From assembly GCA_965204055.1 (NCBI GenBank), contig OZ241967.1, positions 1,186,126-1,250,125 of the forward strand: 64,000 nucleotides of DNA, in the 5' to 3' direction. Position numbers and translations under genes: made by a program. Source of the DNA: Bdellovibrionales bacterium (GTDB taxonomy: Bacteria > Bdellovibrionota > Bdellovibrionia > Bdellovibrionales > UBA1609). Under the pieces are notes generated by a model. It made no database searches, was not told the origin of the DNA, and saw only the letters and a list, made by a program, of their open reading frames with translations. The first letter of the stretch is position 1. Each line of letters opens with the position of its first letter. This document shows, piece after piece, positions 33,068 to 64,000 of this stretch.

Positions 33068-33119
33068 TTCATATAACCTTTTGTTTTATTGAAAAATGAC
33101 TCTCTAATAACCTCAGTTA

Positions 33120-34091: not shown

Positions 34092-34293
34092 CAGTATCTA
34101 TCTCAAAATTTTTTGTTGAACCAGAACTATATTTATATATTTTTTTTCGACCCATAGCAATATCTATTTTTTCTGCAATATCGGAAATTTCCTTATATGT
34201 TTTATAAAACTCCAATGCTTTGGCATTTTCGTTTAAAACAGATTCAGGCAGGATTTCTTCAGTCGTAAGTTTTGATTTTTTTTGAGTAGTCAT
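34054..34293 (-). CDS. small hypothetical protein, first gene of the protease-helicase operon
   Basis: 79-aa ORF, same strand, overlaps the annotated protease start by 38 nt; no recognisable motif. Confidence 0.4.
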   Translation of the reverse strand: MTTQKKSKLTTEEILPESVLNENAKALEFYKTYKEISDIAEKIDIAMGRKKIYKYSSGSTKNFEIDTDALPPSIQSYKV

Positions 34294-34362
34294 ATTTTAT
34301 ATTATCGTTAATTTGGATTATGAAGTCAACAAAATTATAGCTGAAAAATCAAGCAAAAAACA

Positions 34363-35490: not shown

Positions 35491-35707
35491 TTTTTCTGCA
35501 ACGGAAAAAGACAATATTAAAGATCAGGTGTTGCTTTATGCCAGTGCATCTGCTTTTTCCAATCCTTCAACTGGCTTTAATAAAGCTCAAGGTGTGCCCT
35601 TGCCCCCAGGAGTGGAGCTTACAAAACAGATTGTCAGTCGTTCCCCTGATAATATTTAAACGTTTAATTTATCTCTTTGGGTTTAATAATTTTTTTAGGA
35701 TGTGGCT

Positions 35708-38700
35708 TTAAAGTTTCTTTTTCCAAAGATTGTAATACTTTAAAACGGCGGTTAAGCGGGACTGGTAGTCCCCAGTTCTGTGAAAGGTCTCAAAGATATG
35801 AATAAGTTGTTTTTGAGACAAGCCGTAAAGGTGAGCCACTACAGCGTCTAATTCATAAATCATATTGTTCTTTTTTTCTTCATCCAGCGGACCATATTCT
35901 ACACCTACAGCTTCAGCCCATTTAGAAAATCGTTTATCTGGGGAAGCTAACCGACCAGAGAGAGCTACAACTTTTTTCCAAAGAGGGTTTTCTCTGGAAG
36001 GTCTGGGAATAGGAAAAGTATTAAGAAGAAAAAAACTAAGACTATTTGTAGAAATAAATAAACGAGCATACCAATCTAAAGGAATAGAGCTTAAAACTCC
36101 AAGTAAAAAGGCTTCATCTTTTTCATCTCCTCTTGGAAGTAGAAAATAAGGTGCTTTATGAACTAAAAACACTTTAGGGGGCAAAAGGCTGGTTTTAACC
36201 GTTCTGTAATCAATGCTGTTTGTTACATCGTGAAATGCAATTCTTGGTTTAAAGCAAGATAAAGTATTTTTATTTTGTATATAATCAATGGAAAACTCTG
36301 AATGAACGCTTTTTTGATTTTTATGACTATTAAGTCTTTTGTTATAAAGCCAAGAGAGTGCTGTTTCAGGATTGGCATAAGCATAATACTTCCTTGTATC
36401 AGTTTTCCAGATATTAAAAGACCTACCTGTCCAAACTGGCCAAAACCCTTTTGGACATTTTTTTGATTTTAAATCCATTAAAGGTTTTGATCCTGTAGTA
36501 TGTAATTCTGTATCAGGTCGAACTCTCCAACTATTTTTATCATTCAAACCTAACCGGGGGCTTTTCCTTAATTGAAGAAAAACATCCATAGAATCTTCTC
36601 TTGGTAAAGAGGGTAAGGAAGCAGAATCTGTCCATGAAAATACTTGCTTTTCTGTAAAAGACAAAGACAGTTTGTTTTCTTTAGCTTGCAACTCCTCATG
36701 GGAATAAAAAGGGCCTTGAATATGGATTGTTTTACCAGTGGGGCGGAAATCTCTTGTTCGGCTTAATTTTTTTTCAAATTGTTGGACAAAGGGTTTAAAA
36801 GTGAGATTGTGTTTTTCAGATGTTTTTTTTAAGGAAATCAAAGCAATATTATATTGAGCATGAACTTCCGAAAAAATCCACTTCTTGTTATTGATTAGCA
36901 TTGTTATATTAGAAGAAGCATTATTAAAAATGTCTTTTCTAAATAACTCCGATCCCTTTGCGGAAAAAACATTCCCTGGAAGAACGACCCCCAAAAATCC
37001 ACAATCTTTACAAATAAGATGCCAAAATCTCCATGAGAAAAATTTATACAAGTCAGAATCTCCTGAACCGGATTGAACATAAGATGATTGTTTCAATACA
37101 TTTTTAAGCCTTTTAACATTTGATAGCTCTTTCTCATACTCTTTGACAAGGTGAGGGTATTGTCTTTTTACTTTTTGATATTCTGCCTCTCTCTCCCTTT
37201 GAGAAAGTCCTCTTAATCCGGGAAAATGCCTGGCCCAAAAAGCATGTTCTTCCAGCTTGATTTTTTCCCAAGGAGGGTTGCCAATAATTACATCAAAGCC
37301 AGGCCTCTTTCTTAAAAAAACTTCAGGAAAAGCTATGGGAAAATGAAGGGTTTTTAAATTTTTAAGCTCTAAACGAGCTGATTTTAGTTCTTTGGAATTA
37401 TGAATGCTTTTTATGTTTTTTACCCATTCTACCAGTTTAAAACCACTTACTTGGTTAGTTATGCGATTAAAAATTATTACATCAAACAAGGCTTTAGTAT
37501 CCTTTAAAGAAGATTCAATCTCTTTTTTAAAGAGTCTGCTTGCTTTTATTTCCTCAACACTTAAATCAGCAAGTTTTCTCATATCTTGAAGAGACTTTTT
37601 TGCCTGACCAATTAGTTTTTCTCTATCAATCAGATCAAAAGACAAGTTTTCTGATTCTTGTTTGCTTTTAAGCTCTGATTGAAATTCCTTAATGGTCCCT
37701 ATACCCACAAGGGAGTTTCCACAAATTAGATTGTGATTAAAATAGGAAAGAGGAAGCCCTGGAACAAATGTATGTGTCCAAAGTGATAACTTGGCCAATT
37801 GCACCGCCAAGTCATTATTGTCCACCCCGTAAATGCAGTGCTTTGCAATATGTCGGGCTAAATATTTTCTGTCTTCAACTGGAAAATAATCGTCAGATAT
37901 ACCTATATCTTTGAGATTTTTTTCCGCTGTCTTTTTTGTTTTATCTAAAATATTTTGAACACCCTTTAAAGGTCTGTTATTCAAATAGTCTGCCATTTTG
38001 TTTTCAATCCTATCAACCGCTGCCACTAAAAAATGCCCGGACCCCATCGCAATGTCCGCCGTAAAAAAGTTAAAAAATTCTTTTTCTGCGTCTTCGTCAT
38101 GCAATTTATTTAAGCGGTTAAAATGCTCTTTTAAAGCGGGTTCAAGAGATTTGTCTAAAATATAATCAACAATAAAACTTTTGGTGTAATAACTACCTGT
38201 TGCTTTTCTTGCTCCAGATTGATTGTGCAAATAAACCTCTCCCTTTTTAACAATAATTTCTTCTGTTTTTTTAGATTTCTTGTTTTTACTGACTTTTAAC
38301 TTCCTTAAAGGGACATAAATATTGTTTGTATCCAATGTTAAATCCGTATCAGCTATTGATAAATTAGACTCTAAAAGTCCCTCATAAATAGTCCCAAATT
38401 CACGAGGACCCAGAAAACGAAAATCCACTGGGCCAAGAGGAGTTTCCTCATTTTCCATAAGAAGCAAGCTTTTTAAAGCAGGCACAAAAAATTTATTGGA
38501 AACAGAAACCTTTGCAATTTCATGCCCTGTTGTTGAAACCTCTTTTTCACTACTAAACAAGCCTCCGTTATAAGCCATAATTCCCCACTCAATATTTCCT
38601 TTATCAATAGCCTCCCAAAGCCTAACTGTTTCTTTCCAGTGATTATCTCCTTCTTCAGGTTCTTTCCCGTTTGAAAAAAGTTTTGATAATTCTAAAGCTT

Positions 38701-39859
38701 TTTGTTTTAAAGATCGGTTATGATAAGCTGAATTTGTATTATAAGGTAACAAATCTTTATCTTCTGCATAAGCTATAAATAAAAGGCGAAACAAAACAAT
38801 CAATGTCATTTGATAAGTTTCATTTAACTCTTCAGGAGAAGGTTTTTTTAAGCTTCTTGCATGAACAATCCCTTTAGCTATTTGAGGAATAATCTCATCA
38901 TAAATTCGTGGTTTTAAGTTTTTTGCTACACCTTCTGAAAAACGTTTTGAGTTTTCTAAAATTTCAGTTAAAGAACCTTGTTCACTTAATGCCTCTGCGG
39001 AAAAAATAAGCCATAGATAACCCAGATTTTCTTCCTGCAAGAGAGAAGGCTGGCATTCCACATAAGTTTCTGTTCGGGAATTATGGCTTAATCCTGTTTC
39101 TTTTTTTGTGCTGTAAAGCCGAATATGATTATCTTGAATCATTAAAACCCAAGGCATGTGCTCCTGGTCCGCTTTATTCATAGCATAACTAACAGGGGAT
39201 AGTTGATTAAAACGTTGTTCTTTAGATTCGTGTGTTTCTGAAGGTTCCAGTAAAACAGCTAAAGCTCTTTTTTTATCATGGCTTTTTAAAATATATGTCC
39301 GGTCGTCAAGCTGGCTAATTTGAAAGCCAAGCCCTTTTAAAAGCTCTTTTTTTCCAAAAACAGATATGGCTTTAGATTTTTCTTTGGCTTTCTCCCAATC
39401 AGGACGATTTTTTACTCCATAAGTAAGATGATGAGAAGACAACATGCCTTTATTGTTGATTCCAAATAATCCTTCTTCTATAGAAGAAAGAAAACGAGAA
39501 CAAAATTTTAAGGCTCTGTGCCGGTTGGGTTGTTTTAAAGCTACCTGACAAAATTTTTCAACTAGTTCAAGTTGAATGTTTTTATAAACAGGAGGGTTTT
39601 CTCCAGAAGCACCACAAAGAGAAGCTTGATTATCACCATGAATAACAGTTAATAAAACCGGTGATGCTCTATGGTTTTTCCTTTTCTTTTGAGCCTTTTT
39701 TACAGTTTCAGTGTTGGGGGTGTTATTGCCTGTTAACACTGCTATTTCTAAGGCATCCCTTCCTTTTCCTAAAATTAATTTCTCCGACTTAAGCCCTGAT
39801 ATTAAATTGGAAAGGGGCCTTGATTGAAAATCATCGAGAAATTTCTTTACAGCACTCAT
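35708..39859 (-). CDS. giant N6-adenine DNA methyltransferase of the PglX / type IIG-IIL restriction-modification type
   Basis: 1383 aa; LIVLFRLLFIAYAEDKDLLP helix, SAM motif DIAMGSGHFLVAAV, catalytic motif IV VIIGNPPWEKIK, ~400-aa C-terminal region in the usual target-recognition position; no nuclease motif could be confirmed in the N-terminal ~280 aa. Confidence 0.8.
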   Translation of the reverse strand: MSAVKKFLDDFQSRPLSNLISGLKSEKLILGKGRDALEIAVLTGNNTPNTETVKKAQKKRKNHRASPVLLTVIHGDNQASLCGASGENPPVYKNIQLELVEKFCQVALKQPNRHRALKFCSRFLSSIEEGLFGINNKGMLSSHHLTYGVKNRPDWEKAKEKSKAISVFGKKELLKGLGFQISQLDDRTYILKSHDKKRALAVLLEPSETHESKEQRFNQLSPVSYAMNKADQEHMPWVLMIQDNHIRLYSTKKETGLSHNSRTETYVECQPSLLQEENLGYLWLIFSAEALSEQGSLTEILENSKRFSEGVAKNLKPRIYDEIIPQIAKGIVHARSLKKPSPEELNETYQMTLIVLFRLLFIAYAEDKDLLPYNTNSAYHNRSLKQKALELSKLFSNGKEPEEGDNHWKETVRLWEAIDKGNIEWGIMAYNGGLFSSEKEVSTTGHEIAKVSVSNKFFVPALKSLLLMENEETPLGPVDFRFLGPREFGTIYEGLLESNLSIADTDLTLDTNNIYVPLRKLKVSKNKKSKKTEEIIVKKGEVYLHNQSGARKATGSYYTKSFIVDYILDKSLEPALKEHFNRLNKLHDEDAEKEFFNFFTADIAMGSGHFLVAAVDRIENKMADYLNNRPLKGVQNILDKTKKTAEKNLKDIGISDDYFPVEDRKYLARHIAKHCIYGVDNNDLAVQLAKLSLWTHTFVPGLPLSYFNHNLICGNSLVGIGTIKEFQSELKSKQESENLSFDLIDREKLIGQAKKSLQDMRKLADLSVEEIKASRLFKKEIESSLKDTKALFDVIIFNRITNQVSGFKLVEWVKNIKSIHNSKELKSARLELKNLKTLHFPIAFPEVFLRKRPGFDVIIGNPPWEKIKLEEHAFWARHFPGLRGLSQREREAEYQKVKRQYPHLVKEYEKELSNVKRLKNVLKQSSYVQSGSGDSDLYKFFSWRFWHLICKDCGFLGVVLPGNVFSAKGSELFRKDIFNNASSNITMLINNKKWIFSEVHAQYNIALISLKKTSEKHNLTFKPFVQQFEKKLSRTRDFRPTGKTIHIQGPFYSHEELQAKENKLSLSFTEKQVFSWTDSASLPSLPREDSMDVFLQLRKSPRLGLNDKNSWRVRPDTELHTTGSKPLMDLKSKKCPKGFWPVWTGRSFNIWKTDTRKYYAYANPETALSWLYNKRLNSHKNQKSVHSEFSIDYIQNKNTLSCFKPRIAFHDVTNSIDYRTVKTSLLPPKVFLVHKAPYFLLPRGDEKDEAFLLGVLSSIPLDWYARLFISTNSLSFFLLNTFPIPRPSRENPLWKKVVALSGRLASPDKRFSKWAEAVGVEYGPLDEEKKNNMIYELDAVVAHLYGLSQKQLIHIFETFHRTGDYQSRLTAVLKYYNLWKKKL

Positions 39860-40200
39860 ATTCTAATTTTTCGGGTAATTTAACAAAAACTTTAATATTT
39901 TATAGATTTATTTTATATAACCGCCGACTTTTCTCGCAGTTTCCGCTCTATCTGAGTAGATCACAGCAAAACCACAGCAAAATTACAGCAAGTCGCCAAA
40001 GTGTTATTAAGCAGACAATGTTACTCAGACAGATAAAAAGGGGCTTGCTTTATTTTTTATTGATTTTTATGATGATTTTTAAAAAAATAAGCCTAATCAG
40101 CAACTGAATTTTTGGGCCTTTAGGAGAAAATCAATAATCCTGATTTTAACCGTGTCGAACTTGACACTTTTAAAAACGAAGCAGAACTGAAGGATGTGTT

Positions 40201-42006
40201 ATGATTGAAAAATTATATTCCATTTTAAATGAATTTAAAAAACCAGAATTTATGATCGAGAACAAAATCTACCGTAAAATCTGTGACTTTAACAATAAAG
40301 AATTTAATGAAAAAAAATTACCAAGAACTTCTAAATTTTTTTATGAAGAATTAGCTTTTGCTTTTATGGAAGGAAGAAATCCTCCTTTAGAATGGGGAAA
40401 TACTTTTTATACTCCATTATTTGGTTATATTGATCCTACAACTAAACAGTGGAGCTCTTCTTATCCAGACATTCAACAGATCACTCCTGAAATGGTGATT
40501 TATTGGGAAAAACGCTCTTCAGAAGTTAGTAATCCAATTTTGCAATGTCGTTATTCAGGACTTGTATGGGATTTTTCACAAAAAATAAGAAATTTAAACC
40601 CCGATATATCAATTGTTCATAGATTCATTGATTCTGTAATTAATATGGCCAATTTAGGAGAAAACCCTTTTTTAAAAGATAAATTGGAAAGAAGTTTAAA
40701 AGTGGCCATTTCCACTAATAACCAACAAAGAATTATCTCTACTCGTGATGCTATTATTAAATATGAAAACACTTATGCTAAGGATGATAAACTGGGAACA
40801 TGGGGATATTCTTACGATTTGTTAATTAGTAACAAAAACCTATATCGTAAAGTTCAATTAAGAGAGAAACAAGAAAACAAAATTATACAAGAACTAGAAA
40901 AAAAATTAAAGAAATTTTCCGATAGAGAATCAAAAAATCTCAGTCCTCATTCTGTTGAGTATATAGCAACAAAATTAGCTCCCTATTATAAAGGCAAAAA
41001 TGATATGGAAAATATGAAAAGGGTTTTACTTATATATAGAGATTCTTTTTTATATGGAATTAACAACAATCGTGTAATGATAGGAAGCCATTGGTTAGAG
41101 AAAATTAGAATAATTTTATTTCAGTATGGTTTATCTGAAGAAGCAAAAGAGTTAGAACCTAATATAAGAACCCTTCAAAAGGAAGATTTAAAATATCTGC
41201 AAAAGTTTGAAACATCTGTTAAAATTCCAAAAGCGCAAATTGACAATTACATCTCTGAGCTTGATAGAAAGAGTCTCTCTGAGGCATTAAATTGTATTGC
41301 ATTGTCTTTTATCCCTGATAAAGAAGAAGCTAAAAATATTGTTCTTAAAATTGCAAAAGAACATCCATTACAGGCCAGGATTAGTCAATCTATTATGGAT
41401 CATACGGGAAGGAAAGTTGCTACAATTGATCCTATAGAAAATGATTTGGCGGGACATATTGTTCGTCAAATATCTCAATCAATGCAGATGAATCTATCTT
41501 TTATTGCATTAGGATTAAATCATTTAAAAGAGCATAAATTATTAGATGCTAATTCACTTGCAAATCATCTATTCCAGTCACCAGTATTTATACAGGCAAA
41601 TCATCCAATTATAAAACAAGGTTTAATTGCATATTTTAATAAAAACTATATTGTAAGTTGTTCTGTATTGATACATCAAATTGAATCAGCAATAAGAGAG
41701 TTAATTTCCGTAGCTGGAGGAGCAATTTATCAGCCTTCTAATAATTATAGAAAAACAGGTTTTAAGTTAAGACCTTTAGGAACTTTGCTGAGAGATGAAA
41801 TTTTTACTAAAGTTTTTGAAAAATTAAATAGTAATATACCAGAGTTTTTCAGAATCCTGTTAGTAGATAAACGATCTCTGAATATTAGAAATTCTATTTA
41901 TCATGGTCATTTTCCTGCCGGTTTTTTTAATGAAAGGATTGCTATTCATATTATTCATATATTACTTATTTTGTCAGTTTTGAGGAAAGGTAAAACACTC
42001 TCTTAA
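40201..42006 (+). CDS. hypothetical protein with a DUF4209-like C-terminus (R-N-x-x-x-H motif, HEPN-like)
   Basis: 601 aa, very AT-rich; C-terminal SLNIRNSIYHGHFPAGFF fits R-x4-H; divergent from the methyltransferase gene. Confidence 0.4.
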   Translation: MIEKLYSILNEFKKPEFMIENKIYRKICDFNNKEFNEKKLPRTSKFFYEELAFAFMEGRNPPLEWGNTFYTPLFGYIDPTTKQWSSSYPDIQQITPEMVIYWEKRSSEVSNPILQCRYSGLVWDFSQKIRNLNPDISIVHRFIDSVINMANLGENPFLKDKLERSLKVAISTNNQQRIISTRDAIIKYENTYAKDDKLGTWGYSYDLLISNKNLYRKVQLREKQENKIIQELEKKLKKFSDRESKNLSPHSVEYIATKLAPYYKGKNDMENMKRVLLIYRDSFLYGINNNRVMIGSHWLEKIRIILFQYGLSEEAKELEPNIRTLQKEDLKYLQKFETSVKIPKAQIDNYISELDRKSLSEALNCIALSFIPDKEEAKNIVLKIAKEHPLQARISQSIMDHTGRKVATIDPIENDLAGHIVRQISQSMQMNLSFIALGLNHLKEHKLLDANSLANHLFQSPVFIQANHPIIKQGLIAYFNKNYIVSCSVLIHQIESAIRELISVAGGAIYQPSNNYRKTGFKLRPLGTLLRDEIFTKVFEKLNSNIPEFFRILLVDKRSLNIRNSIYHGHFPAGFFNERIAIHIIHILLILSVLRKGKTLS

Positions 42007-42189
42007 GTCCTAAACCTTCTATGTGGTTCTTATCTCTTGTATACTTTAGAAGGCATGCATGCCGTACAATAAAGATTTTTGTTTGCAGATTCTATAAAGC
42101 TATATATTAGCTCCTAAGAAATGCTTAGCCTGTTATTTTGCTTATTTTTTATCATTTTTACAGGGATACCATTGATTTGCGGGTCAATA

Positions 42190-43318
42190 GGCCTTAAAAT
42201 GCCATTTTCACCCTATTTTACCTGTGATTTGTCTTTACTATTTTTTAGCTACCTTATTTCAATGGCACTTTAAAGAGGTAATAAATTTGTAAGAGATTGA
42301 CAAAAAGTTTTTTGTGCGTCACTTTTGAACACCATGAAAAAAAGTAAAAAGTTTCTACACGATCATTTATTTAAAGAAGTTTACTCTCAACCCAAATACT
42401 GCGTAGACATCTTAAGCCTTGTTTTCTCAAAAAAAGAAATGAGCCTGTTTGATTGGACTACCCTTAAAACCGAAGCCACCTCTTTTATTGACGAGTCATC
42501 AAGAGAAAAACGAATGGACCTTCTGGTCTCAGCCCTTTTTAAAGATTCCAGGAAGCCTGCCAGAGTGTTGTTCTTAATGGAGCACAAGAGTCAAGAAGAC
42601 CCGGAGCTATTACGGCAATTTTTAATGTATCAGGCAGGTATTTATCAAAGTACCCGTGATCCAGTGCTTCCAGTATTCATCAATCAAAGTCCAAACAAGA
42701 AATGGAAAGGGTCTTTAGATTTTCACGATTTTTTGAATAATTTTGAAGGAGAGTTAAAAAAGAGGTTTAAAGAGAATGTGTTAAATTTTCGCCCCAGAGT
42801 ATTGAATATTCAGGCTTTAGATATAGATAAGGCCAAGGGCTTGACAACGCGTCCTATTTTGTATATTTTAAAGCATATATGGAACTTAAACGCGAAAAAG
42901 ATAAAGGGGTTATTTACAATAGGCCGTGGTTTGAGTCAAAATGAGCGAGAAGCTTTGATCGTGCGAGCGGTGGATTATGTTCGTCAATATGATCCTAATT
43001 TTAATTGGAAGATAGTAAGAGAGATTGAACAAACCACAGTCAAAAAGGAGGAAAGAGTTATGGCACCGTTACTTCAGTATTCATTGGATGAAGCCAGAGA
43101 AGAAGGCTTAAAAAAAGGCCGACTGGAAGGTATAGAAAAAGGCATGGAAAAAGGCATGGAAAAAGGCATGGAAAAAGGCATGGAAAAAGGCATGCAGGCG
43201 GTAGCCTTAAACATGTTGAAAGCAAAAGCGGATCTATCTTTTATCTCCAAAATGACAGGTCTTTCTGAGGCAGAAATCGAAAAACTTAAAAATAACTCTT
43301 AAAAAAGTTTTCATCAAA
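42190..43318. repeat. ~1.1 kb direct repeat, copy 2
   Basis: See 34363-35490. Confidence 0.85.
42325..43302 (+). CDS. Rpn (YhgA-like) recombination-promoting nuclease family, copy 2
   Basis: 325 aa, near-identical to copy 1 except for scattered substitutions and 4 instead of 1 GMEK units (12-bp repeat at 43141-43188). Confidence 0.8.
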   Translation: MNTMKKSKKFLHDHLFKEVYSQPKYCVDILSLVFSKKEMSLFDWTTLKTEATSFIDESSREKRMDLLVSALFKDSRKPARVLFLMEHKSQEDPELLRQFLMYQAGIYQSTRDPVLPVFINQSPNKKWKGSLDFHDFLNNFEGELKKRFKENVLNFRPRVLNIQALDIDKAKGLTTRPILYILKHIWNLNAKKIKGLFTIGRGLSQNEREALIVRAVDYVRQYDPNFNWKIVREIEQTTVKKEERVMAPLLQYSLDEAREEGLKKGRLEGIEKGMEKGMEKGMEKGMEKGMQAVALNMLKAKADLSFISKMTGLSEAEIEKLKNNS

Positions 43319-45479: not shown

Positions 45480-46934
45480 ATGAAAAAAGTTTTAATTATT
45501 GATGATGAAAACACCCTCCGCCAATCTCTTTCCAAAGCTTTAGAGCTAAACGGATATTTAACAGTAAAGGTGGGATCAAAAAAAAGTTTTCACGAATTGC
45601 CTAAAAACGCTTGCTTTGATATAGCCTTGTTAGATTTAAAATTACCAGATGGAGATGGGTTGGAATTAATACAGTGCTTGAAAGAAAGAACCCCCAACAT
45701 TCAAGTGATTGTTATGACAGGCTACGGAACTATCGATCTGGCCGTATCCGCTACAAAACAAGGAGCATTTCATTTTATAACAAAGCCTTTTAATATAGGA
45801 GAGATTATCAACCTGTGCTCAAAAGCTCTGTTTCAATCTCAGTTAGAAACAGAAAACGCCAGGCTCCGATCTTGCGTAAAAAAACAATACCGGTTTGATC
45901 AAATTATTGGGCAAAGCAGACCCCTTCTTAACTTGTTAGAAATGATTAAAAAAATCTCTCACTCCTCCTCCACAGTGCTTATTACAGGAGAAAGTGGAAC
46001 TGGAAAAGAGTTGGTGGCTAAATCCATCCACTTTAATTCCCCACTTAGCCGAGGCCCTTTTATTCCTGTGCATTGTGGAGCTATTCCAAAAGATCTTTTA
46101 GAGAGTGAACTGTTTGGCCATAAAAAAGGTTCCTTTACCGGTGCTATAAAAGACCGCATTGGCCGATTTCAAATGGCAAAAGGAGGTACTCTTTTTTTAG
46201 ATGAAATAAGCACTATGGATTTATCCACACAAGTTAAACTGCTTAGGGTTCTTCAGGAAAAAGAATTTCAACCGGTGGGGGGGGAGCATGTCATTCGATC
46301 TCAAGCGCGCATTATCTCTGCCAGCAACGAAGATCTGGAACAAGCCGTCCGAAAAGGCACTTTTAGAAAAGACCTATATTACCGCCTAAATGTTATTCCT
46401 CTATCTATAGCCTCTTTAAGAGAAAGAAAAGAGGATATTCCTCTCTTAATTAACTATTTCATAAAAAACTTTAATAAAAGCCGATTAAATAAATTTAAAG
46501 GATTATCAAAGTCTGCCATCAACCAACTCTGCCAATATGAATGGCCAGGGAACATTAGAGAGTTAGAAAATATGATCGAGCGTCTTTGTGTGCTAAACAA
46601 TAATTCTATCGTGCAGGATACAGATTTGCCTTCACAATATCGTGGCCTTTCTTCTCAGAGCACGCAAGAAGAAATGATGGAAATTCCAGAAACTGGTTTA
46701 GATTTTAACAACATTGTCAACTTGTTTGAAAACAAAATTATTTTAAAAGCCCTGGAAAAAACAAAATGGAACCGCAACCAGGCGGCTAAGTTACTAAAAC
46801 TAAACCGCACTACCCTTTTAGAAAAAATCAAAAAAAAGGGATTAAAGGCAAACAGGCCGACTATTGTAGAAAATATTGTAGAAAACACTATAGAAAATAC
46901 CAAAGAATCCACACTTTTGCCTAAGGATGTTTAG
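45480..46934 (+). CDS. sigma54-dependent response regulator (NtrC family)
   Basis: Receiver domain (DLKLPDGDG), AAA+ domain with GESGTGKE and GSFTGA (GAFTGA variant), C-terminal Fis-type HTH (NRNQAAKLLKLNRTTL). Confidence 0.85.
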   Translation: MKKVLIIDDENTLRQSLSKALELNGYLTVKVGSKKSFHELPKNACFDIALLDLKLPDGDGLELIQCLKERTPNIQVIVMTGYGTIDLAVSATKQGAFHFITKPFNIGEIINLCSKALFQSQLETENARLRSCVKKQYRFDQIIGQSRPLLNLLEMIKKISHSSSTVLITGESGTGKELVAKSIHFNSPLSRGPFIPVHCGAIPKDLLESELFGHKKGSFTGAIKDRIGRFQMAKGGTLFLDEISTMDLSTQVKLLRVLQEKEFQPVGGEHVIRSQARIISASNEDLEQAVRKGTFRKDLYYRLNVIPLSIASLRERKEDIPLLINYFIKNFNKSRLNKFKGLSKSAINQLCQYEWPGNIRELENMIERLCVLNNNSIVQDTDLPSQYRGLSSQSTQEEMMEIPETGLDFNNIVNLFENKIILKALEKTKWNRNQAAKLLKLNRTTLLEKIKKKGLKANRPTIVENIVENTIENTKESTLLPKDV

Positions 46935-47040
46935 GACTCTATACACCCATTCTTTTCAACATATCAAACATGGCTTTTGCCTAAGGATGTTTAGGACTCT
47001 ATACACCCATTCTTTTCAACATATCAAACATGGCTTTTAC
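46914..47040. repeat. 2.1 copies of a 60-bp tandem repeat spanning the response-regulator stop codon
   Basis: 46921-46980 and 46981-47040 are identical except for the last 2 nt; each holds the hairpin CCTAA-GGATGT-TTAGG. Confidence 0.9.
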
Positions 47041-47049
47041 CTTAACAGA

Positions 47050-48208: not shown

Positions 48209-48286
48209 CGGAAGTGCAGGTGCATCTTCAGAAGCAACTGGCAAAATTAACCATCAGCAACATGGATAACTATCCCCCTTTGGGGG
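48209..48286. repeat. single copy of the 83-bp hairpin-ended repeat family
   Basis: GCAGGTGCATCTTCAGAAGCAACTGGCAAAATTAACCATCAGCAACATGGATAACTATCCCCCTTTGGGGG, identical to the units at 61301-61632, abutting the stop codon at 48287. Confidence 0.85.
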
Positions 48287-50962
48287 CTATTTGCAGGGGA
48301 TTTTGTTTGTCCGACACATCCATTGAACACGATGGCTCATCCTCTGAAATATGTCATCATGCGGAGAACCAAACTTCCCCACCTTGTGGTTTAATTGCTT
48401 GCCCTTCGGCAATAACTTCTTTAAATCTAAACTCGCCAATCCCCTCTTGCTCCCTTTTCCCCTTTTCGCACTCCTTCTGTATCCTCTCCTTGAATTTCCA
48501 CTGGCAGAACCTCCACCGCTGTAACCCGCAAACTTACCCCCCGCATATCCATGTAATATCTTCTTGCCCTTAGCTGAATCTCCACCTCCGGATCCCCTCC
48601 TACCAGGACCGGAAGAACCACCACCGCCACCAAGACCACCAAGCCCCCCGCCTGTGCCACCACCGCGTCCGCCAAGCAGTCCACTCATACCACCCGGAGA
48701 ACTCTTGTCTTCCTCTTGCTCATCCTCCCCTAAATCAGGCTCCTCTCCCAATGGATCCGCAGGCCCGGAAAGAGGGTCATCATCTGGTAATTCAAAGGGC
48801 TTCCTCCTTCTCTTACGAGGATCCTTATCAGGACCACCCCCTCCCAACTCTGGAACCGGAGCAGGAGGACCATCTGGAGAGGATATAATTGGGGAACCAG
48901 TAGGCCTGATTATCGGTTGTTGTGGTATAACTGGGGATTTTTGTTCCCACTCAAGCGGTGGTTCACCACCACACTCCCGCATAGACGCTAAAAGACTTGT
49001 ACCTATGTTTGTGCTCATATCTTGTATTGATCTATTGGCCTCACGGCCTGTTACCTCACATTGCCCAGGAGCTTTTGCTATATTTACCTCTCTGCCATCG
49101 CTTTGGGTTGTGTGAGTGGTTATATATTGTTCTTTATAATGACTAAAAAACCTCTCTGTGCAAGAATGCTCTGAAGGATTATATCCTTCTTTGTCTCTTA
49201 TACTACCACGGCAAGCCTCCTTAAACGCTTTTGCCACCTTATTCTGCTCCTGACGACAGCCTGATTGACAACTGTTAGCCTTGCTTGTGCATTGACCAAC
49301 CATTGCCCCCTTCATTCCCGCATAAAGACCAGAAGTCTCTTTTACCGCGTCACATTGCTCCTTTGCCCCTCTAAATGCACTCATACCTACATGTAATTTG
49401 CCTAAACCATCTAAAGCCGTGGCTAATCCTCCACCCACACACTGCTCAGGACTATGGCAACATTTGTTGGCTTTTTTTTGAAGCTCCGCACAGGTCTCTA
49501 TCGCCTCCTCTAAAGCTAAAACTAAATCCGCCTCGCAACTCTGATTTTCATCCCTCTTACACACCACCCACCACGAAAAAGGCTGTATAGGTTCACCAGA
49601 TTCGTCAAACTGAGCATCTACCTCTTTTTTCACAAAGGGCGATATATAGCTTATATAGCTATCCTCAGTAATATTATTTATTAGGAAACTCAGATGTTCA
49701 TTAGAAGTATCTGTAGTACCTAAACCCAGTCCCCTCCTTCTTGAAGAAGCACTTGTCATTTTAGAAAAATAACCTACTATGTCTTCAGGATTAACATCGG
49801 TAAATATCTTTTCTGCTTTTGTTTGTCCCGCCACCTCACAAAATTCTAGACAGCCTGGATTACCTTTTGTAGCGGGTTCTTTACATAGGAGAGTCACACC
49901 ACGCCCTTTTTCCTCTGCTTTTTTTTTAATGTATCCTGAGCATTTTTCAGCATATATTTTATTGAATGTGTCTTTTAACTTCGATAAACACCCTCCACGC
50001 TGTCCCTCAATAGATTCTTCTACTGCAAGCGGAATATTAAGAGGGGGGCTATCGCAAATAGTACTGCATTCTATGTCATTTATTGAATCACAAACCCCTG
50101 TTTTACCACTTATAGAATTTACATATTCATTACACTGGTCTTGGCATTCTCCCGTATCAGTGGCTACCGATGATCGCTCACTCGTTTCCTTAAGTCTTCG
50201 ACATTCTGCTAAGTGCTCAATATTAGTACGTGACAGACAAACCCTATCGCAAGGTATTCCACCGCTGGTCCGTAAATTAGAATATTTTGTTTCACATTCA
50301 TTTTCTACTTGTACATGATCTGAACCATCACTTAATATTTCCTGTTTGCACATGGCTAATACTTTGCCAAGCTCACCTCTCATATCACTACCACCGCGAC
50401 GACAAGCACTATAACAGGAATACCCTTGTACGAATACTCTTTGAAATTTTTCACAGGTTGATGAATCCCCACCTGCTGTACTGGAGACGGATCGTGCATC
50501 TGCATCTGCAACCGAACCGTTAATCATTTCCCTCGTTTTTGTTGAATCATAAGCGAAACGGCTTAACTGTGCTTCTGATTCAACAGGGCTTGATTCCGCA
50601 TCTTTTTCATGATCAGCACCAGCATCATCACCATCACCATCACTATCACCATCACTCCTCCATGTCGCTTCCATCTCTGTCATACGTTGGTTACATTCTT
50701 CGTCTAACGTTGCACCTCTGAATATTTCAACTCCATTTATGGATCTTTTATCTCCACCTCTCAGACAACGCTCATATACCTCTCTGGGGGTTGTTTGTGC
50801 ATAGCCACTAAAACAGAACAAAATCTGTATCAAAACCACTATCAGAACACTTAAAGCTTGCAATATACCCTCCCTTATGCCTGCTTTTCTAAAGAAGTTA
50901 ACCTGATTTTTAGAAGAATATAAAAAAATAAAAGCCAAAACTGCTTGACAGTTTTCCCGCAA
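48287..50962 (-). CDS. large secreted cysteine-rich protein with a Pro-rich and Gly/Arg-rich C-terminal half (paralogue of 61634..64000)
   Basis: 891-aa ORF from a TTG. The likely true start is the TTG at 50863, preceded by AAGGGAGGG. That gives the signal peptide M-QALSVLIVVLIQILFCFSGYA|Q. No recognisable catalytic motif. Confidence 0.7.
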   Translation of the reverse strand: MRENCQAVLAFIFLYSSKNQVNFFRKAGIREGILQALSVLIVVLIQILFCFSGYAQTTPREVYERCLRGGDKRSINGVEIFRGATLDEECNQRMTEMEATWRSDGDSDGDGDDAGADHEKDAESSPVESEAQLSRFAYDSTKTREMINGSVADADARSVSSTAGGDSSTCEKFQRVFVQGYSCYSACRRGGSDMRGELGKVLAMCKQEILSDGSDHVQVENECETKYSNLRTSGGIPCDRVCLSRTNIEHLAECRRLKETSERSSVATDTGECQDQCNEYVNSISGKTGVCDSINDIECSTICDSPPLNIPLAVEESIEGQRGGCLSKLKDTFNKIYAEKCSGYIKKKAEEKGRGVTLLCKEPATKGNPGCLEFCEVAGQTKAEKIFTDVNPEDIVGYFSKMTSASSRRRGLGLGTTDTSNEHLSFLINNITEDSYISYISPFVKKEVDAQFDESGEPIQPFSWWVVCKRDENQSCEADLVLALEEAIETCAELQKKANKCCHSPEQCVGGGLATALDGLGKLHVGMSAFRGAKEQCDAVKETSGLYAGMKGAMVGQCTSKANSCQSGCRQEQNKVAKAFKEACRGSIRDKEGYNPSEHSCTERFFSHYKEQYITTHTTQSDGREVNIAKAPGQCEVTGREANRSIQDMSTNIGTSLLASMRECGGEPPLEWEQKSPVIPQQPIIRPTGSPIISSPDGPPAPVPELGGGGPDKDPRKRRRKPFELPDDDPLSGPADPLGEEPDLGEDEQEEDKSSPGGMSGLLGGRGGGTGGGLGGLGGGGGSSGPGRRGSGGGDSAKGKKILHGYAGGKFAGYSGGGSASGNSRRGYRRSAKRGKGSKRGLASLDLKKLLPKGKQLNHKVGKFGSPHDDIFQRMSHRVQWMCRTNKIPCK

Positions 50963-50967
50963 TATGA

Positions 50968-50985
50968 GGGGGGGGGGGGGGGGGG
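50968..50985. repeat. homopolymer G18 (C18 on the coding strand) upstream of the cysteine-rich protein gene
   Basis: Counted 3+10+5 G in the printed blocks; lies between TTTTAC and TCATATT on the minus strand. Confidence 0.9.
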
Positions 50986-51304
50986 TAAAAGTTTTTTTTG
51001 ATTATAAAGTTTCATATTATCTATTCTATCGGCTGTTCTGATAAAAACTTGAACCATTTTTTTCATTTTAGTAAAAAAGTGTGTATTTAAAGACAAACTG
51101 TGTCCAAAAAACAGGTTTTTCACCAACTATTTTAACCGAATATGATAAAAATTCCTGCAGGAAAGTAAACAAGACTTACTTTGCTCCAAAACAGGCGAAT
51201 AGACTCCTGACTTCCGCATTATGCGCCCCGACTTCAGCACAACACTATGTGTTAAAAAAATATTTTGATGTTTTGTTCGGATGGAACAAAGAGGATTAAA
51301 CTTC

Positions 51305-51374
51305 AGAATAAGGCAGATGAGAGAATAAGGCAGATGAGAGAATAAGGCAGATGAGAGAATAAGGCAGATGAGAG
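51305..51374. repeat. 4 x 17-bp tandem repeat (AGAATAAGGCAGATGAG)
   Basis: Units start at 51305, 51322, 51339 and 51356; intergenic. Confidence 0.9.
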
Positions 51375-51792
51375 AGATTTTAACAAGAGACCAATATAGC
51401 CTTATAGAAAATGAAAACAAAAATCTTTATTGTCCGCCCTCTAAAAGCACACAAGAAATAAGATCCATATACGAGGCCTTAGGTCTTAAAAGAGTGTCTA
51501 AATTTTGAACCAAATCTTAAAAATGTGTTCCCTCCAAAATTTTGTAAGTATCTGAAATTACTCATTTATTGCATTGTGTTGTGCGGAAATCGGGAAAAAC
51601 TCTTGACTGGAATTTTATTACTATAGTAGTTTTTTTGCAGGCTACTATTGATATTCGGTTCACTTTTTATCATTCCAGCTTAAGAACAGGAATCTTGCTG
51701 TTTTGTTGTAAGCTGGTCCTCTATAGTCGTCTGTGAAAAAACTAACTGAGCTAAAAAAGCAATAAAACCACAATCTTAAGGAGGAAAAAATT

Positions 51793-52578
51793 ATGTTTTA
51801 TGGTAACATGGGAGTCGGAGCAATAATTGGTATTGGCATTATTATTCTATTTCTTATTTTCTCTATTATCAAAATTTTACCAGAGTGGCAAAGAGGTGTA
51901 ATCCTTCGATTCGGGCGATTTGTGGGGGTCCGTGGCCCGGGGCTGATTATCCTGATTCCTATGGTGGAGCAAATTAGACGAGTGGAAACCCGAACCATAA
52001 CTATGGATGTCCCTCCTCAGGATGTAATCACCTTAGACAACATAAGCTTAAAAGTAAACGCTGTGCTTTATTTCCGCATTACAGATCCAGAAAAAGCCAC
52101 CCTTAAAGTGGAAAACTATGCAGAAGCCACCTATCAGTTAGCGCAAACTACTTTGCGAGCCACCTTAGGGCAATATCAATTAGATGATCTGCTGGCTAAA
52201 AGAGACAAAATAAACCACACCCTTCAAAATATTTTGGACCACGAAACAGAACCTTGGGGTATTAAAATTTCAAAAGTGGAAGTAAAACATATTGACTTAC
52301 CTAAGGAAATGCAAAGGGCTATGGCTCGTCAAGCGGAAGCGGAAAGAGAGCGAAGAGCCAAAGTCATTAGCGCGGAAGGAGAATTTCAAAGAGCAGAAAA
52401 GCTGAAAGAAGCCTCAGAGATTATTTCTTCCTCCCCTTCAGCCATACAGCTGGCCTACCTACAAGCTTTAAACGAAATTTCTAATGAAGGCACTAAAACA
52501 GTAGTTTTTCCAATTCCCATGAACCTGTTAGAAGCTTTTCAACAGTTTAAAAAAGAACCGGAAAAAAATGCCAATTAG
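51793..52578 (+). CDS. SPFH/band 7 (stomatin-like) membrane protein
   Basis: 261 aa; N-terminal TM then an SPFH domain (PEWQRGVILRFGRF..GPGL, TLDN..L.V.AV, WGIKISKVEVKHIDLP, AEAERERRAKVISAEGE). Confidence 0.85.
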   Translation: MFYGNMGVGAIIGIGIIILFLIFSIIKILPEWQRGVILRFGRFVGVRGPGLIILIPMVEQIRRVETRTITMDVPPQDVITLDNISLKVNAVLYFRITDPEKATLKVENYAEATYQLAQTTLRATLGQYQLDDLLAKRDKINHTLQNILDHETEPWGIKISKVEVKHIDLPKEMQRAMARQAEAERERRAKVISAEGEFQRAEKLKEASEIISSSPSAIQLAYLQALNEISNEGTKTVVFPIPMNLLEAFQQFKKEPEKNAN

Positions 52579-54873: not shown

Positions 54874-55278
54874 TTACTTTAGATGTTTACCCAGTCCTCC
54901 TGGCACATCAAACATACGAATCTGCTTTTTGTTTCCAAAAATCTGTTTCAGTTTGTCATCTAAGTTTATATTTCTTCTGTTTTTTGAATCCTGCAACCCA
55001 TTCTTTTTCACATAGTTCCAAAAATACTTAATAGCCTTTTGCCTTGTAACTGACTTAGCACCTATTACTGCTGAAAGCTTATCTGAAGCTTTCATTGTTT
55101 TCATAAGAGCTGGATTCAGCTTTCTTTTCTTTTTCTTGGCTACTTTCTTCTTGGCTTTCTTCTTTACTACCTTCTTCTTAGCTTTCTTCTTTACTACCTT
55201 CTTCTTAGCTTTTTTCTTTACTGCCTTCTTTTTAGCTTTTTTCTTTACTGCCTTCTTTTTAGCTTTTTTCTTTGCCAT
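54874..55278 (-). CDS. SWIB/MDM2-domain protein with a lysine-rich (histone H1-like) repeat N-terminus
   Basis: 134 aa; N-terminal (KKKAKKKAV)n; C-terminal LSAVIGAKSVTRQKAIKYFWNYVKKNGLQDSKNRRNINLDDKLKQIFG matches the SWIB consensus. Confidence 0.8.
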   Translation of the reverse strand: MAKKKAKKKAVKKKAKKKAVKKKAKKKVVKKKAKKKVVKKKAKKKVAKKKKRKLNPALMKTMKASDKLSAVIGAKSVTRQKAIKYFWNYVKKNGLQDSKNRRNINLDDKLKQIFGNKKQIRMFDVPGGLGKHLK

Positions 55279-61295: not shown

Positions 61296-61300
61296 CGGGG

Positions 61301-61632
61301 GCTGAGCGGAAAAGCAGGTGCATCTTCAGAAGCAACTGGCAAAATTAACCATCAGCAACATGGATAACTATCCCCCTTTGGGGGCTGAGCGGAAAAGCAG
61401 GTGCATCTTCAGAAGCAACTGGCAAAATTAACCATCAGCAACATGGATAACTATCCCCCTTTGGGGGCTGAGCGGAAAAGCAGGTGCATTATATTAGGCA
61501 CCTTGCAAAACTATAAAAAAGCAACATGGATAACTATCCCCCTTTGGGGGCTGAGCGGAAAAGCAGGTGCATCTTCAGAAGCAACTGGCAAAATTAACCA
61601 TCAGCAACATGGATAACTATCCCCCTTTGGGG
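61301..61632. repeat. 4 x 83-bp tandem repeat, each unit ending in the hairpin CCCCC-TTT-GGGGG
   Basis: GCTGAGCGG starts at 61301, 61384, 61467 and 61550. Units 1, 2 and 4 are identical. Unit 3 has a substituted 36-nt core containing the palindrome AGGTGC...GCACCT. The array abuts the stop codon at 61634. Confidence 0.9.
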
Positions 61633-61633
61633 G

Positions 61634-64000
61634 CTATTTGCAGGGGATTTTGTTTGTCCGACACATCCATTGAACACGATGGCTCATCCTCTGAAATATG
61701 TCATCATGCGGAGAACCAAACTTCCCCACCTTGTGGTTTAATTGCTTGCCCTTCGGCAATAACTTCTTTAAATCTAAACTCGCCAATCCCCTCTTGCTCC
61801 CTTTTCCCCTTTTCGCACCCCTTCTGTATCCTCTCCTTGAATTTCCACTGGCAGAACCTCCACCGCTGTAACCCGCAAACTTACCCCCCGCATATCCATG
61901 TAATATCTTCTTGCCCTTAGCTGAATCTCCACCTGATCCCCCTCTTCTACCAGGACCGGAAGAACCACCACCGCCACCAAGACCACCAAGCCCCCCGCCT
62001 GTGCCACCACCGCGTCCGCCAAGCAGTCCACTCATACCACCCGGAGAACTCTTATCTTCCTCTTGCTCATCCTCCCCTAAATCAGGCTCCTCTCCCAATG
62101 GATCCGCAGGCCCGGAAAGAGGGTCATCATCTGGTAATTCAAAGGGCTTCCTCCTTCTCTTACGAGGATCCTTATCAGGACCACCCCCTCCCAACTCTGG
62201 AACCGGAGCAGGAGGACCATCTGGAGAGGATATAATTGGGGAACCAGTAGGCCTGATTATCGGTTGTTGTGGTATAACTGGGGATTTTTGTTCCCACTCA
62301 AGCGGTGGTTCACCACCACACTCCCGCATAGACGCTAAAAGACTTGTACCTATGTTTGTGCTCATATCTTGTATTGATCTATTGGCCTCACGGCCTGTTA
62401 CCTCACATTGCCCAGGAGCTTTTGCTATATTTACCTCTCTGCCATCGCTTTGGGTTGTGTGAGTGGTTATATATTGTTCTTTATAATGACTAAAAAACCT
62501 CTCTGTGCAAGAATGCTCTGAAGGATTATATCCTTCTTTGTCTCTTATACTACCACGGCAAGCCTCCTTAAACGCTTTTGCCACCTTATTCTGCTCCTGA
62601 CGACAGCCTGATTGACAACTGTTAGCCTTGCTTGTGCATTGACCAACCATTGCCCCCTTCATTCCCGCATAAAGACCAGAAGTCTCTTTTACCGCGTCAC
62701 ATTGCTCCTTTGCCCCTCTAAATGCACTCATACCTACATGTAATTTGCCTAAACCATCTAAAGCCGTGGCTAATCCTCCACCCACACACTGCTCAGGACT
62801 ATGGCAACATTTGTTGGCTTTTTTTTGAAGCTCCGCACAGGTCTCTATCGCCTCATCTAAAGCTAAAACTAAATCCGCCTCGCAACTCTGGTTTCCTCCT
62901 TTCTCGCACACCACCCACCACGAAAAAGGCTGTATAGGCTCACCAGATTCGCCGGCAAATTGATCTTCTACCGCTTGTTTTGCAAGGGGTTGTATATAGT
63001 GATTTTGATACCACTCCTCATTAATATTTTGTATTAACCAACTAATGTGTCGGTTACCTTGATCTGAAGAATTACTCCGGCGATCATCATGATCATGATA
63101 ATAATTCACTATGTCTTTAGGATTAACATCGGTAAATATCTTTTCTGCTTCTGTTTGTCCCGCCACCTCACAAAATTCTAGACAGCCTGGATTACCTTTT
63201 GTAGCGGGTTCTTTACATAGGAGACTCGAATTGCTCCCTTTTTCCCCTTCTTTTTTTTTAATGTATCCTAAGCATTCTTCAGTATATATTTTATTGAATG
63301 TGCTTGTTAACTTCGATAAACAACTATTGCGCTGTCCCCTAATAGATTCTGATTCTTCCACAGCCAACAGAATATCAGGAGGGGGGCTATTGCAAATAGC
63401 ATTGCAGTCTATGCTACCGTTATCTATTGAGTCACAAACCCCTGTTTTACCAATTATAGAATTTACATATTGATCACACTGACTACTACAGTCCCCCTCC
63501 CTTGCTACTACTGATCTGTGACCTCTTCCTGAGTTCTCAAGTCTTTTCTTTAATTTGTCGCATTCCTCTAATAAGTAATCTAAGCGCATGTGAGAACCAG
63601 AACCTTTTCGAAACTGAACACAAACATCTGTGCAAGATCGCCCACCGCTGGTCCGTAAATTAGAATATTCTGTTCCACATTCATTTTCTACTTCTACTTC
63701 TACTTGTGCTTGTGCTTGTGCTTGTGCTTTTTGCTTATTACAGCTTGCGAACATCAGGCCATACTGCTGTCCATCCATGCTGGTATCAGCTGGATCGTAG
63801 TTTTTACATACTTCTTCACAATCTAATGTTCCACCCATTGCCTGCGCAGATAATCCTGAAAACTGTTCACAGTCATCTCCTACTGCACTTGCTTCCACAC
63901 TCTCATCTGATGATGCAGCCATGCTGTTCCCCTCTGCTTGCACATTCAATACCTGTTGCTCAACTGCTCTCAAACGTCTTTCACACTCTATTTGCTTGCT
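61634..64000 (-). CDS. large secreted cysteine-rich protein, paralogue of 48287..50962; 5' end beyond the window
   Basis: Frame open to position 64000. The C-terminal ~420 aa are nearly identical to the 48287 gene. The N-terminal part is divergent but shares blocks such as LLCKEPATKGNPGCLEFCEVAGQT. Confidence 0.7.
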   Translation of the reverse strand, partial: SKQIECERRLRAVEQQVLNVQAEGNSMAASSDESVEASAVGDDCEQFSGLSAQAMGGTLDCEEVCKNYDPADTSMDGQQYGLMFASCNKQKAQAQAQAQVEVEVENECGTEYSNLRTSGGRSCTDVCVQFRKGSGSHMRLDYLLEECDKLKKRLENSGRGHRSVVAREGDCSSQCDQYVNSIIGKTGVCDSIDNGSIDCNAICNSPPPDILLAVEESESIRGQRNSCLSKLTSTFNKIYTEECLGYIKKKEGEKGSNSSLLCKEPATKGNPGCLEFCEVAGQTEAEKIFTDVNPKDIVNYYHDHDDRRSNSSDQGNRHISWLIQNINEEWYQNHYIQPLAKQAVEDQFAGESGEPIQPFSWWVVCEKGGNQSCEADLVLALDEAIETCAELQKKANKCCHSPEQCVGGGLATALDGLGKLHVGMSAFRGAKEQCDAVKETSGLYAGMKGAMVGQCTSKANSCQSGCRQEQNKVAKAFKEACRGSIRDKEGYNPSEHSCTERFFSHYKEQYITTHTTQSDGREVNIAKAPGQCEVTGREANRSIQDMSTNIGTSLLASMRECGGEPPLEWEQKSPVIPQQPIIRPTGSPIISSPDGPPAPVPELGGGGPDKDPRKRRRKPFELPDDDPLSGPADPLGEEPDLGEDEQEEDKSSPGGMSGLLGGRGGGTGGGLGGLGGGGGSSGPGRRGGSGGDSAKGKKILHGYAGGKFAGYSGGGSASGNSRRGYRRGAKRGKGSKRGLASLDLKKLLPKGKQLNHKVGKFGSPHDDIFQRMSHRVQWMCRTNKIPCK

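Follow-up and report, generated by a model that had tools for sequence, protein, structure and literature searches.

A run of 18 cytosines (C18) lies near the 5' end of a gene for a large cysteine-rich protein in a Bdellovibrionales bacterium, within the 64,000-nucleotide (nt) stretch of DNA that is called the window throughout this text. The run is a candidate contingency locus, and a role as an on/off switch of the textbook kind is plausible but unproven. In the reading favoured here, which is given about an even chance of being right, C18 is a homopolymer liable to slippage, transcribed at the 5' end of a gene under sigma28 control, and would act, if it acts at all, through the reading frame. 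The gene, referred to as paralogue 1, is one of two paralogues in the window and is encoded on the minus strand. Its elements are the following.

48287..50863, minus strand: main open reading frame (ORF), 858 amino acids (aa) from TTG 50863, cysteine-rich, with a predicted signal peptide
50868..50876, minus strand: Shine-Dalgarno sequence AAGGGAGGG, 4 nt before TTG 50863
50864..50967, minus strand: spacer of 104 nt from the tract to the TTG, open in the frame of the main ORF
50968..50985, minus strand: C18, codons 11-16 in the frame of ATG 51015 (six CCC, proline)
50875..51015, minus strand: promoter-proximal frame as assembled, MKLYNQKKLL-PPPPPP-SYCGKTVKQFWLLFFYILLKIRLTSLEKQA, 46 aa, then TAA
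51026..51052, minus strand: putative sigma28/FliA-type promoter TCAAGTTT-N11-GCCGATAG, with the -35 element at 51052..51045 and the -10 element at 51033..51026
51084..51134, minus strand: conserved block upstream of the promoter, with the imperfect inverted repeat GGACA-N5-TGTC(T/C)

A preliminary description of this DNA had read the minus strand as ATG(51015)-AAA-CTT-TAT-AAT-CAA-AAA-AAA-CTT-TTA-(C)18-TCATATTGCGGG, and this matches the sequence exactly. The tract occupies 50985..50968 of the minus strand and is therefore G18 on the plus strand. A run-length scan of the window found no other G/C run longer than 9 nt, the next longest being C9 at 22425..22433 and G8 at 46277..46284. At a G+C content of only ~37%, a run of 18 C cannot be attributed to chance. 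The tract starts ten codons (30 nt) after ATG 51015, and its unit length of one is not a multiple of three. The frames were checked by rebuilding the region in silico with 13–24 C. At the assembled 18 C, the frame of ATG 51015 is offset from that of the large ORF by one base and runs to the stop TAA at 50877..50875 after 46 aa; this stop overlaps the Shine-Dalgarno sequence of the main ORF, 11 nt before TTG 50863. With 16, 19 or 22 C the frame of ATG 51015 joins the large ORF, and with 17 or 20 C it ends at 50910 with a product of 34–35 aa. The earlier statement that the ATG is one nucleotide out of phase and that 19 or 16 C would join the two frames is thus right, and 22 C has the same effect. 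The fused ORF with 19 C comprises 909 aa from ATG 51015, including a 73-aa pre-sequence that contains the signal peptide. The same frame also holds ATG 51057 and ATG 51066, and counted from the latter the fused ORF with 16, 19 or 22 C is 925–927 aa long. Gain or loss of a single unit toggles between a full-length and a truncated product in silico, and an internal start may bypass the switch. In all three frames the tract is translated as 5–6 prolines. The public protein model (P0001, 891 aa) begins at TTG 50962, right behind the tract, and is simply the longest ORF.

The tract is probably part of the transcript, since a conserved sigma28-type promoter match sits 41–85 nt upstream of it. The element at 51052..51026, read here as the putative promoter of paralogue 1, has 1+1 mismatches against the consensus TAAAGTTT-N11-GCCGATAA and ends 10 nt ahead of ATG 51015. 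The 5' regions of three relatives were read. L002 carries P0003, the positional orthologue of paralogue 2, and L006 carries P0125, the positional orthologue of paralogue 1, both from the same ~94%-identical strain; L003 carries P0004, which is 39% identical. The identical 27-nt promoter element occurs at L002:4006 and L006:4550, and a similar site, TTAGGTTT-N11-TCCGATAA, lies at L003:3885, 8 nt before an in-frame ATG. A block of ~125 nt is almost the same in the window, L002 and L006, with diverging flanks. The block at 51084..51134 is likewise near-identical in these three and is found once in the window, while the sequence farther upstream diverges. Sites with at most two mismatches to the 16-nt sigma28 consensus number 3 in the window against a mean of 0.31 in Markov simulations, and all 3 are on the minus strand just upstream of ORF starts. 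In Bdellovibrio bacteriovorus, the attack-phase consensus TTAAG-N16-CCGATA is present in 92 of 140 mapped attack-phase promoters (PMC3627812). The putative promoter of the window gene resembles these FliA attack-phase promoters in its match to TTAAG-N16-CCGATA and TAAAGTTT-N11-GCCGATAA and in preceding a gene for a probably secreted protein, and the bacterium itself has Bdellovibrionales genomes as its nearest relatives. If the assignment is correct, transcription would start a few nucleotides before ATG 51015 (~51016–51022) and yield a near-leaderless mRNA, in which the tract would lie at about +35 to +52. The conserved 5' module of the family would accordingly consist of a sigma28-type promoter followed by a near-leaderless ATG. 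A looser scan for T[TA]AAG-N14-16-CCGATA was uninformative, with 4 sites against 3.8 expected by chance, so that only the extended 16-nt consensus is informative. A sigma54 promoter, suspected by eye in TTGGACA-N-TTGTC, was discarded, the GG-to-GC spacing being one base short. No fliA gene was noticed among the window ORFs scanned.

The position of this promoter bears on the second mechanism of the preliminary description, in which the tract is the spacer between a -35 element TTTTAC and a -10 element TCATAT/CATATT. As a sigma70 promoter, this arrangement would give a transcript starting at ~50955. Homopolymer switches located in promoters have been described for Bordetella fim, Neisseria meningitidis porA/opc and Treponema pallidum tprE/G/J/L and tp0126 (PMC7864442), so that precedents exist in porA/opc and tp0126, and the window locus shares with fim, porA/opc and tp0126 a G/C homopolymer upstream of the main-ORF start of a surface or secreted protein gene. 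The proposed hexamers are present. Their spacing, counted from TTTTAC (50990..50985), is 17–18 nt and not the 18–19 nt originally given, which is near the optimum, and TTG 50863 with its own Shine-Dalgarno sequence lies downstream. However, the -35 element matches at 2/6 positions and the -10 element at 3–4/6, the promoter scan gave no site spanning the tract, and the conserved sigma28-type promoter upstream is common to homologues that have no tract. The homology with L006 starts only at the Shine-Dalgarno sequence, so that the TTG module comes without a conserved promoter of its own. Because of the poor hexamers, the conserved promoter upstream and the lack of conserved sequence ahead of the TTG module, the spacer model is not supported, and it is considered very improbable. 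Unlike the tracts of fim, porA/opc and tp0126, C18 does not stand between a credible -35 and -10 but downstream of a sigma28-type promoter, and the proposed likeness to these promoter switches does not fit.

The frameshift mechanism, the other of the two originally proposed, is the better supported one, although the evidence on the start codon is divided between ATG 51015 and TTG 50863. In its favour, ATG 51015 stands 10 nt past the conserved promoter, and its counterparts in the relatives are in-frame starts. Codons 1–10 of the window frame (MKLYNQKKLL) are homologous to the start of P0003 (MKFYNQK...) in L002, and the homology with the L002 leader extends to TTTAC, directly before the tract. 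In L002 the ATG 7 nt past the -10 element opens MKFYNQKIFTQSRLISPLFLLLSVFSSYA|D, which is the signal peptide of P0003. In L003 the ATG 8 nt past the -10 element shares the frame of P0004, to which it adds a pre-sequence of 72 aa, close to the 73 aa predicted for the window gene with 19 C. The in-frame promoter-proximal ATG of both P0003 and P0004 thus favours a switch of the frameshift type. The annotated "MVQ..." start of P0003 is probably located upstream of the transcription start, inside the promoter, and the N-terminus of P0002 shares its first three residues.

In such a switch, ribosomes would start at the probably near-leaderless ATG 51015, 30 nt before the tract. With 3n+1 C (16, 19, 22) they would continue into the large ORF and produce 909 aa, whereas with 3n C (18, as assembled) they would make the 46-aa peptide, whose stop falls on the Shine-Dalgarno sequence at a distance of 11 nt from TTG 50863. 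With 3n+2 C, termination would come 47 nt ahead of the TTG. Changes in tract length, if they occur, may alter expression. As the main ORF retains a Shine-Dalgarno sequence and a TTG start, the out-of-frame states would probably correspond to low or altered expression rather than to a full OFF, and may be leaky.

TTG 50863 had been named as the best start, and this proposal has gained support. The codon follows the Shine-Dalgarno sequence AAGGGAGGG, opens a hydrophobic, signal-peptide-like segment (M)QALSVLIVVLIQILFCFSGYA|Q that is encoded by 50863..50798 and ends in GYA|Q, and has a homologue in P0125. The predicted signal peptide suggests that the product of the main ORF is secreted. Several observations weigh against a frameshift switch, and the first of them concerns this same codon. 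The orthologue P0125 of L006 starts at GTG 5001, downstream of where the tract would lie, and this GTG is homologous to TTG 50863. The preceding GGAGGTGA is homologous to the Shine-Dalgarno sequence AAGGGAGGG of the window, an in-frame TGA two codons upstream makes the P0125 start unambiguous, and the homology between the window and L006 at the TTG/GTG module begins exactly at the Shine-Dalgarno sequence. The type-1 N-terminal module is therefore able to do without an upstream ATG and be expressed from a Shine-Dalgarno sequence and start of its own, and the window gene would have an internal bypass start, so that "OFF" may be leaky. Compared with P0125, the window gene lacks the in-frame TGA and has the weaker TTG in place of GTG. 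These two differences would fit what upstream read-through tolerates or favours, without proving it.

The distribution of the tract also counts against the frameshift switch. A G/C tract was found in 0 of the 3 readable related 5' regions (L002, L003 and L006), and a poly-proline or poly-glycine signature in 0 of 20 family N-termini. The sole same-species contig, L001 (99.3–99.7% identical), begins at window position 49609, inside the gene; the two paralogues become identical at this same position. Exact-protein look-ups with P0001 and P0002, and with the SPFH, GSDH and M24 genes nearby, gave no record in an index that does not include the window's own assembly. The nrdB look-up returned only contig_52 (L001/L087), which begins inside the gene, and the SPFH homologue led to contig_1 (L004), where an NfeD gene stands in place of paralogue 1. 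A protein search with the hypothetical 19-C fused N-terminus gave no match and missed P0001 itself too, and is uninformative. In addition, it is unusual for a pre-sequence of 73 aa to precede the cleavage site, and slippage of RNA polymerase on a homopolymer of 18 nt could blur the frame state set at the DNA level. The related assemblies look like products of long-read sequencing, so the length of 18 nt may be off by one or more. Finally, tandem repeats abound in the genome, 3' intergenic regions included, and the tract could thus be a neutral product of slippage.

This last point leads to an explanation that is possible but clearly less probable than the frameshift switch, namely that the tract arose incidentally by slippage, within a 5' region that is untranslated or a relic, and that translation starts at TTG 50863 irrespective of how many C are present. 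The stretch from ATG 51015 to the Shine-Dalgarno sequence would then be the decayed old 5' coding end left behind after an N-terminal module was recombined in. The use of a homologous GTG by P0125, with a matching Shine-Dalgarno sequence and a stop just upstream, is in agreement with this, and so is the composition of the family 5' ends, which are mosaics behind a shared promoter module (L006 4550..5010; L002 4006..4130; window 50860..51134). In L006 the order is promoter, Shine-Dalgarno-GTG, a chimeric relic ORF of 105 aa and a second Shine-Dalgarno-GTG that starts P0125, and the relic ORF joins a type-1 start to a P0002-like YWRYEKPSCW...SVFSSYA signal peptide. An analogous relic thus stands in L006 between the promoter and the real gene. 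The post-tract part of the window leader, read in the C18 frame, weakly resembles a P0002-type N-terminus or signal peptide (equalled by 9 of 1000 shuffles, uncorrected for 9 tests), and the resemblance is frame-specific. The absence of the tract from all relatives, the occurrence of tandem repeats in all kinds of positions, and a predicted RNA structure at the Shine-Dalgarno sequence that stays constant from 12 to 24 C are also what an incidental tract would lead one to expect. It is less easily reconciled with an 18-nt G/C run far outside the run-length distribution of the window, with the placement of that run ten codons after a conserved promoter-proximal ATG, or with the main frame, which is open back to the tract over the 104-nt spacer, as in only 5.2% of shuffles. 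The 104 nt after the tract have no detectable homologue in any fetched related locus. A second locus in the window with the same layout, described below, also speaks against an incidental origin.

Other features of these mosaic regions were noted. L006 has two copies of the motif GGAGGTGA(R)TAGTGCA(R)GGTAG. Window 51135..51600 (minus strand), upstream of the promoter module, has its counterpart downstream of the orthologous gene in L006 (7620..7898 and 9531..9578), where it is split by a DDE transposase gene, and window 51305..51375 is a perfect 17-mer repeated 4.2 times in tandem.

Errors in the assembly have to be weighed as well. Long homopolymers are the main error class of long-read data, and the names of the related contigs (contig_N, ctgN_19x_c) suggest long-read assemblers. 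The assembled length could be wrong or the tract artefactual, in which case the true gene would be a plain ORF from ATG 51015 (19/16 C) or would have no long tract. One extra C restores the ORF of 909 aa, and the tract stands exactly where the homology with L002 ends. Against this, the tract is internal to a 2.3-Mb contig and not at its end, and 18 nt is shorter than typical assembly k-mers, which makes a chimeric join at poly-G unlikely. The G8 at 46277..46284 has the same length in three assemblies, and a length error would leave the argument from hypermutability intact. An assembly error is on balance improbable. The G8 run lies inside the gene for the sigma54 activator (window 46277..46284; L001 3841..3848; L006 11861..11868) and is invariant at 94–99.7% identity. 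It can usefully serve as an internal control for the calling of homopolymers, but is too short to reveal much about a tract of 18.

An action of the tract at the level of the RNA or the nascent peptide has also been considered. Poly(C) is a classic activator of Rho, and the tract could serve as a Rho-loading site that couples leader translation to transcription, or its hexaproline could cause a stall dependent on elongation factor P within a leader peptide. The tract encodes 5–6 prolines in every frame, and the stop codon of the leader ORF as assembled overlaps the Shine-Dalgarno sequence ahead of TTG 50863, both of which would suit such a role. On the other hand, neither a proline stretch nor a C-rich leader is conserved in any homologue, and the predicted fold of the leader is unremarkable (z = 0.74 against shuffled sequences). 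An Rfam scan of 50600..51800 gave no match. Action at this level is regarded as highly unlikely. Pairing of the C tract with the GGGAGGG Shine-Dalgarno sequence in a length-dependent manner was rejected; the pairing is predicted, but it is unchanged from 12 to 24 C and overlaps with that of random 18-nt inserts. In Neisseria, a G-quadruplex upstream of pilE promotes recombination, and it is only remotely possible that G18 of the plus strand forms a recombination-promoting structure of this kind.

The case for a frameshift switch at C18 is helped by a second repeat locus in the window. The best sigma28 match in the window, TAAAGTTT-N12-GCCGATAA with zero mismatches, lies at 10473 on the minus strand and precedes an octamer array.

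10473..10149, minus strand: octamer locus, consisting of the sigma28 consensus at 10473, Shine-Dalgarno sequence AAGGAAGGAA, ATG 10417, four codons and (TTTTATCG)x32 at 10404..10149

With 28, 31, 34 or 37 copies, ATG 10417 reads through a spacer of 189 nt into an ORF of 662 aa at 7971..9959, and with the 32 copies of the assembly it meets a stop after 90 aa. Among shuffles of the spacer, 4.7% are open in the frame concerned. The 662-aa ORF has no Pfam match. A hydrophobic stretch, LVEILILSSFGLFVS, lies just upstream of its annotated ATG 9959, which has no Shine-Dalgarno sequence. The octamer array and the C18 locus have a common layout of promoter, ATG, repeat and a large ORF one frame off. 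The occurrence of two frame-shifting repeats of one layout, each one step off, makes a systematic arrangement likelier than it would appear from either alone, and the link between the two loci that had been suggested in the preliminary description is strengthened by this shared layout. A broader proposal would make simple repeats placed 4–10 codons after FliA-proximal starts a general contingency mechanism of this Bdellovibrionales bacterium, switching large secreted proteins of the attack-phase type on and off or between N-terminal forms, with C18 and (TTTTATCG)32 as two instances. This extension is tentative and more doubtful than the switch at C18 itself.

Homopolymer phase variation is textbook knowledge in host-adapted Neisseria, Haemophilus, Campylobacter, Helicobacter and Treponema. 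The poly-G tract of Neisseria pilC is a homopolymer frameshift switch in the 5' coding or signal-peptide region. In Gardnerella nanH3, a tract of 8–14 C just after the signal peptide varies within cultures (10.1101/2020.09.16.300947), and poly-G tracts of 7–11 have been documented to vary within populations (PMC7864442). By working principle, homopolymer frameshift switches such as nanH3 and pilC are the closest known systems to the window locus. As in these genes, a G/C homopolymer falls, counted here from the candidate start ATG 51015, among the first few dozen codons of a gene whose product is secreted or exposed at the surface, and a change of one base toggles between a full-length product and a short peptide, here as computed in silico. 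Unlike in nanH3, the tract is longer (18 vs 8–14 nt) and stands before rather than after the signal peptide. Unlike in both nanH3 and pilC, the window gene has a second start with a strong Shine-Dalgarno sequence downstream, and the out-of-frame states may not be OFF. A looser comparison is with Neisseria pilE/pilS and Mycoplasma vsp/vpma, which show variation of N-terminal modules of the expression-site or cassette type. The window family resembles them in its conserved promoter and leader, its interchangeable N-terminal modules and relics, and the homogenised 3' two-thirds of the paralogues. It differs in that only evolutionary mosaics between strains were observed, and no silent cassette array, recombinase site or switching within a population.

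A literature search brought up no description of phase variation by repeats in Bdellovibrio-like bacteria, nor of repeat-based switching at FliA attack-phase promoters. Should the tract vary in length and alter expression, this would be a case of bet-hedging, in an uncultured member of the Bdellovibrionales, on secreted proteins controlled by the attack-phase sigma factor, with relevance to prey or host range and to the evasion of immunity or defence. If the general contingency reading is true, the two loci would belong to the first set of contingency loci in a predatory or Bdellovibrionota lineage. Practical corrections also follow for the annotation of the family, namely for the start of the 891-aa model, for the "MVQ..." start of P0003 and for the conserved 5' module.

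The main ORF has no Pfam match, and no sequence match in the PDB. A word-indexed protein search with the large ORF returned four relatives only, and an exhaustive HMMER search with a family profile returned 79 cluster representatives, 27 of them at E <= 1e-30. The family plan comprises a signal peptide, a variable cysteine-rich N-terminal part, a conserved CCHxPExCVGGGLA core, a linker rich in proline and glycine, and a basic conserved C-terminus. An AlphaFold2 model of the protein (mean pLDDT, the predicted local distance difference test score, of 64) is helical at residues 190–630 and disordered at 634–835, and a Foldseek comparison of this model with the PDB gave no significant neighbour (best E = 0.39). 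Scans of genome and metagenome contigs with the family alignment found no relatives. In the distant members P0126, P0131 and P0151, the annotated N-termini are in-frame tandem repeats before the signal peptide; that of P0126 holds three copies of SLVLSVCQSWQILNRxRLSVF. L003 has tandem repeats of ~60 nt at 3400..3700, upstream of its promoter. The family may have a general tendency to carry repeats in this part of the gene.

The two paralogues are identical at the protein level over approximately the C-terminal two-thirds, and their DNA is 92% identical (48209..50137 vs 61556..63481). They sit between ribonucleotide reductase genes, with nrdB downstream of paralogue 1 and, by analogy with L002, probably nrdA upstream of paralogue 2, and are separated by ~13 kb of housekeeping genes. 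The more distant genome L005 has nrdA and nrdB side by side and no member of the family at this locus, and the gene order around the paralogues differs between two close strains. A unit of 83 bp lies behind both paralogues (window 61297..61635 and 48209..48288), in 4.1 copies after paralogue 2 and one after paralogue 1. The 99.5%-identical contig L001 has several copies after paralogue 1 (1324..1818), so that the copy number differs between close strains.

The neighbours of the gene are of the housekeeping type and include nrdB, a sigma54 activator, an SPFH protein, fumarase and cytochrome c assembly genes. The closest species representatives of the SPFH protein are Bdellovibrionales metagenome-assembled genomes (81% identity). 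A type II secretion cluster is located at 14–26 kb. Near-perfect tandem repeats are unusually dense in the window and lie largely between ORFs of at least 150 aa; examples are 2193..2274, 3385..3466, 7763..7942, 26679..26823, 28177..28292, 28636..28829, 46914..47042 and 55130..55273. Arrays of the tetranucleotide type (ACGC/CACT, ~145 nt) lie between two convergent genes. The region 29741..43302 is likely a defence island, with an SNF2 helicase carrying a PLD nuclease domain (29741..33067), a DUF4209 protein and an Eco57I-like restriction-modification methylase of 1383 aa (35708..39859); a weaker sigma28-like site lies ahead of the methylase gene, at 39894. The ORFs 34534..35475 and 42325..43302 are paralogues, and the sequences upstream of them are nearly identical; one of the pair precedes the methylase gene and the other lies downstream of that for the DUF4209 protein.

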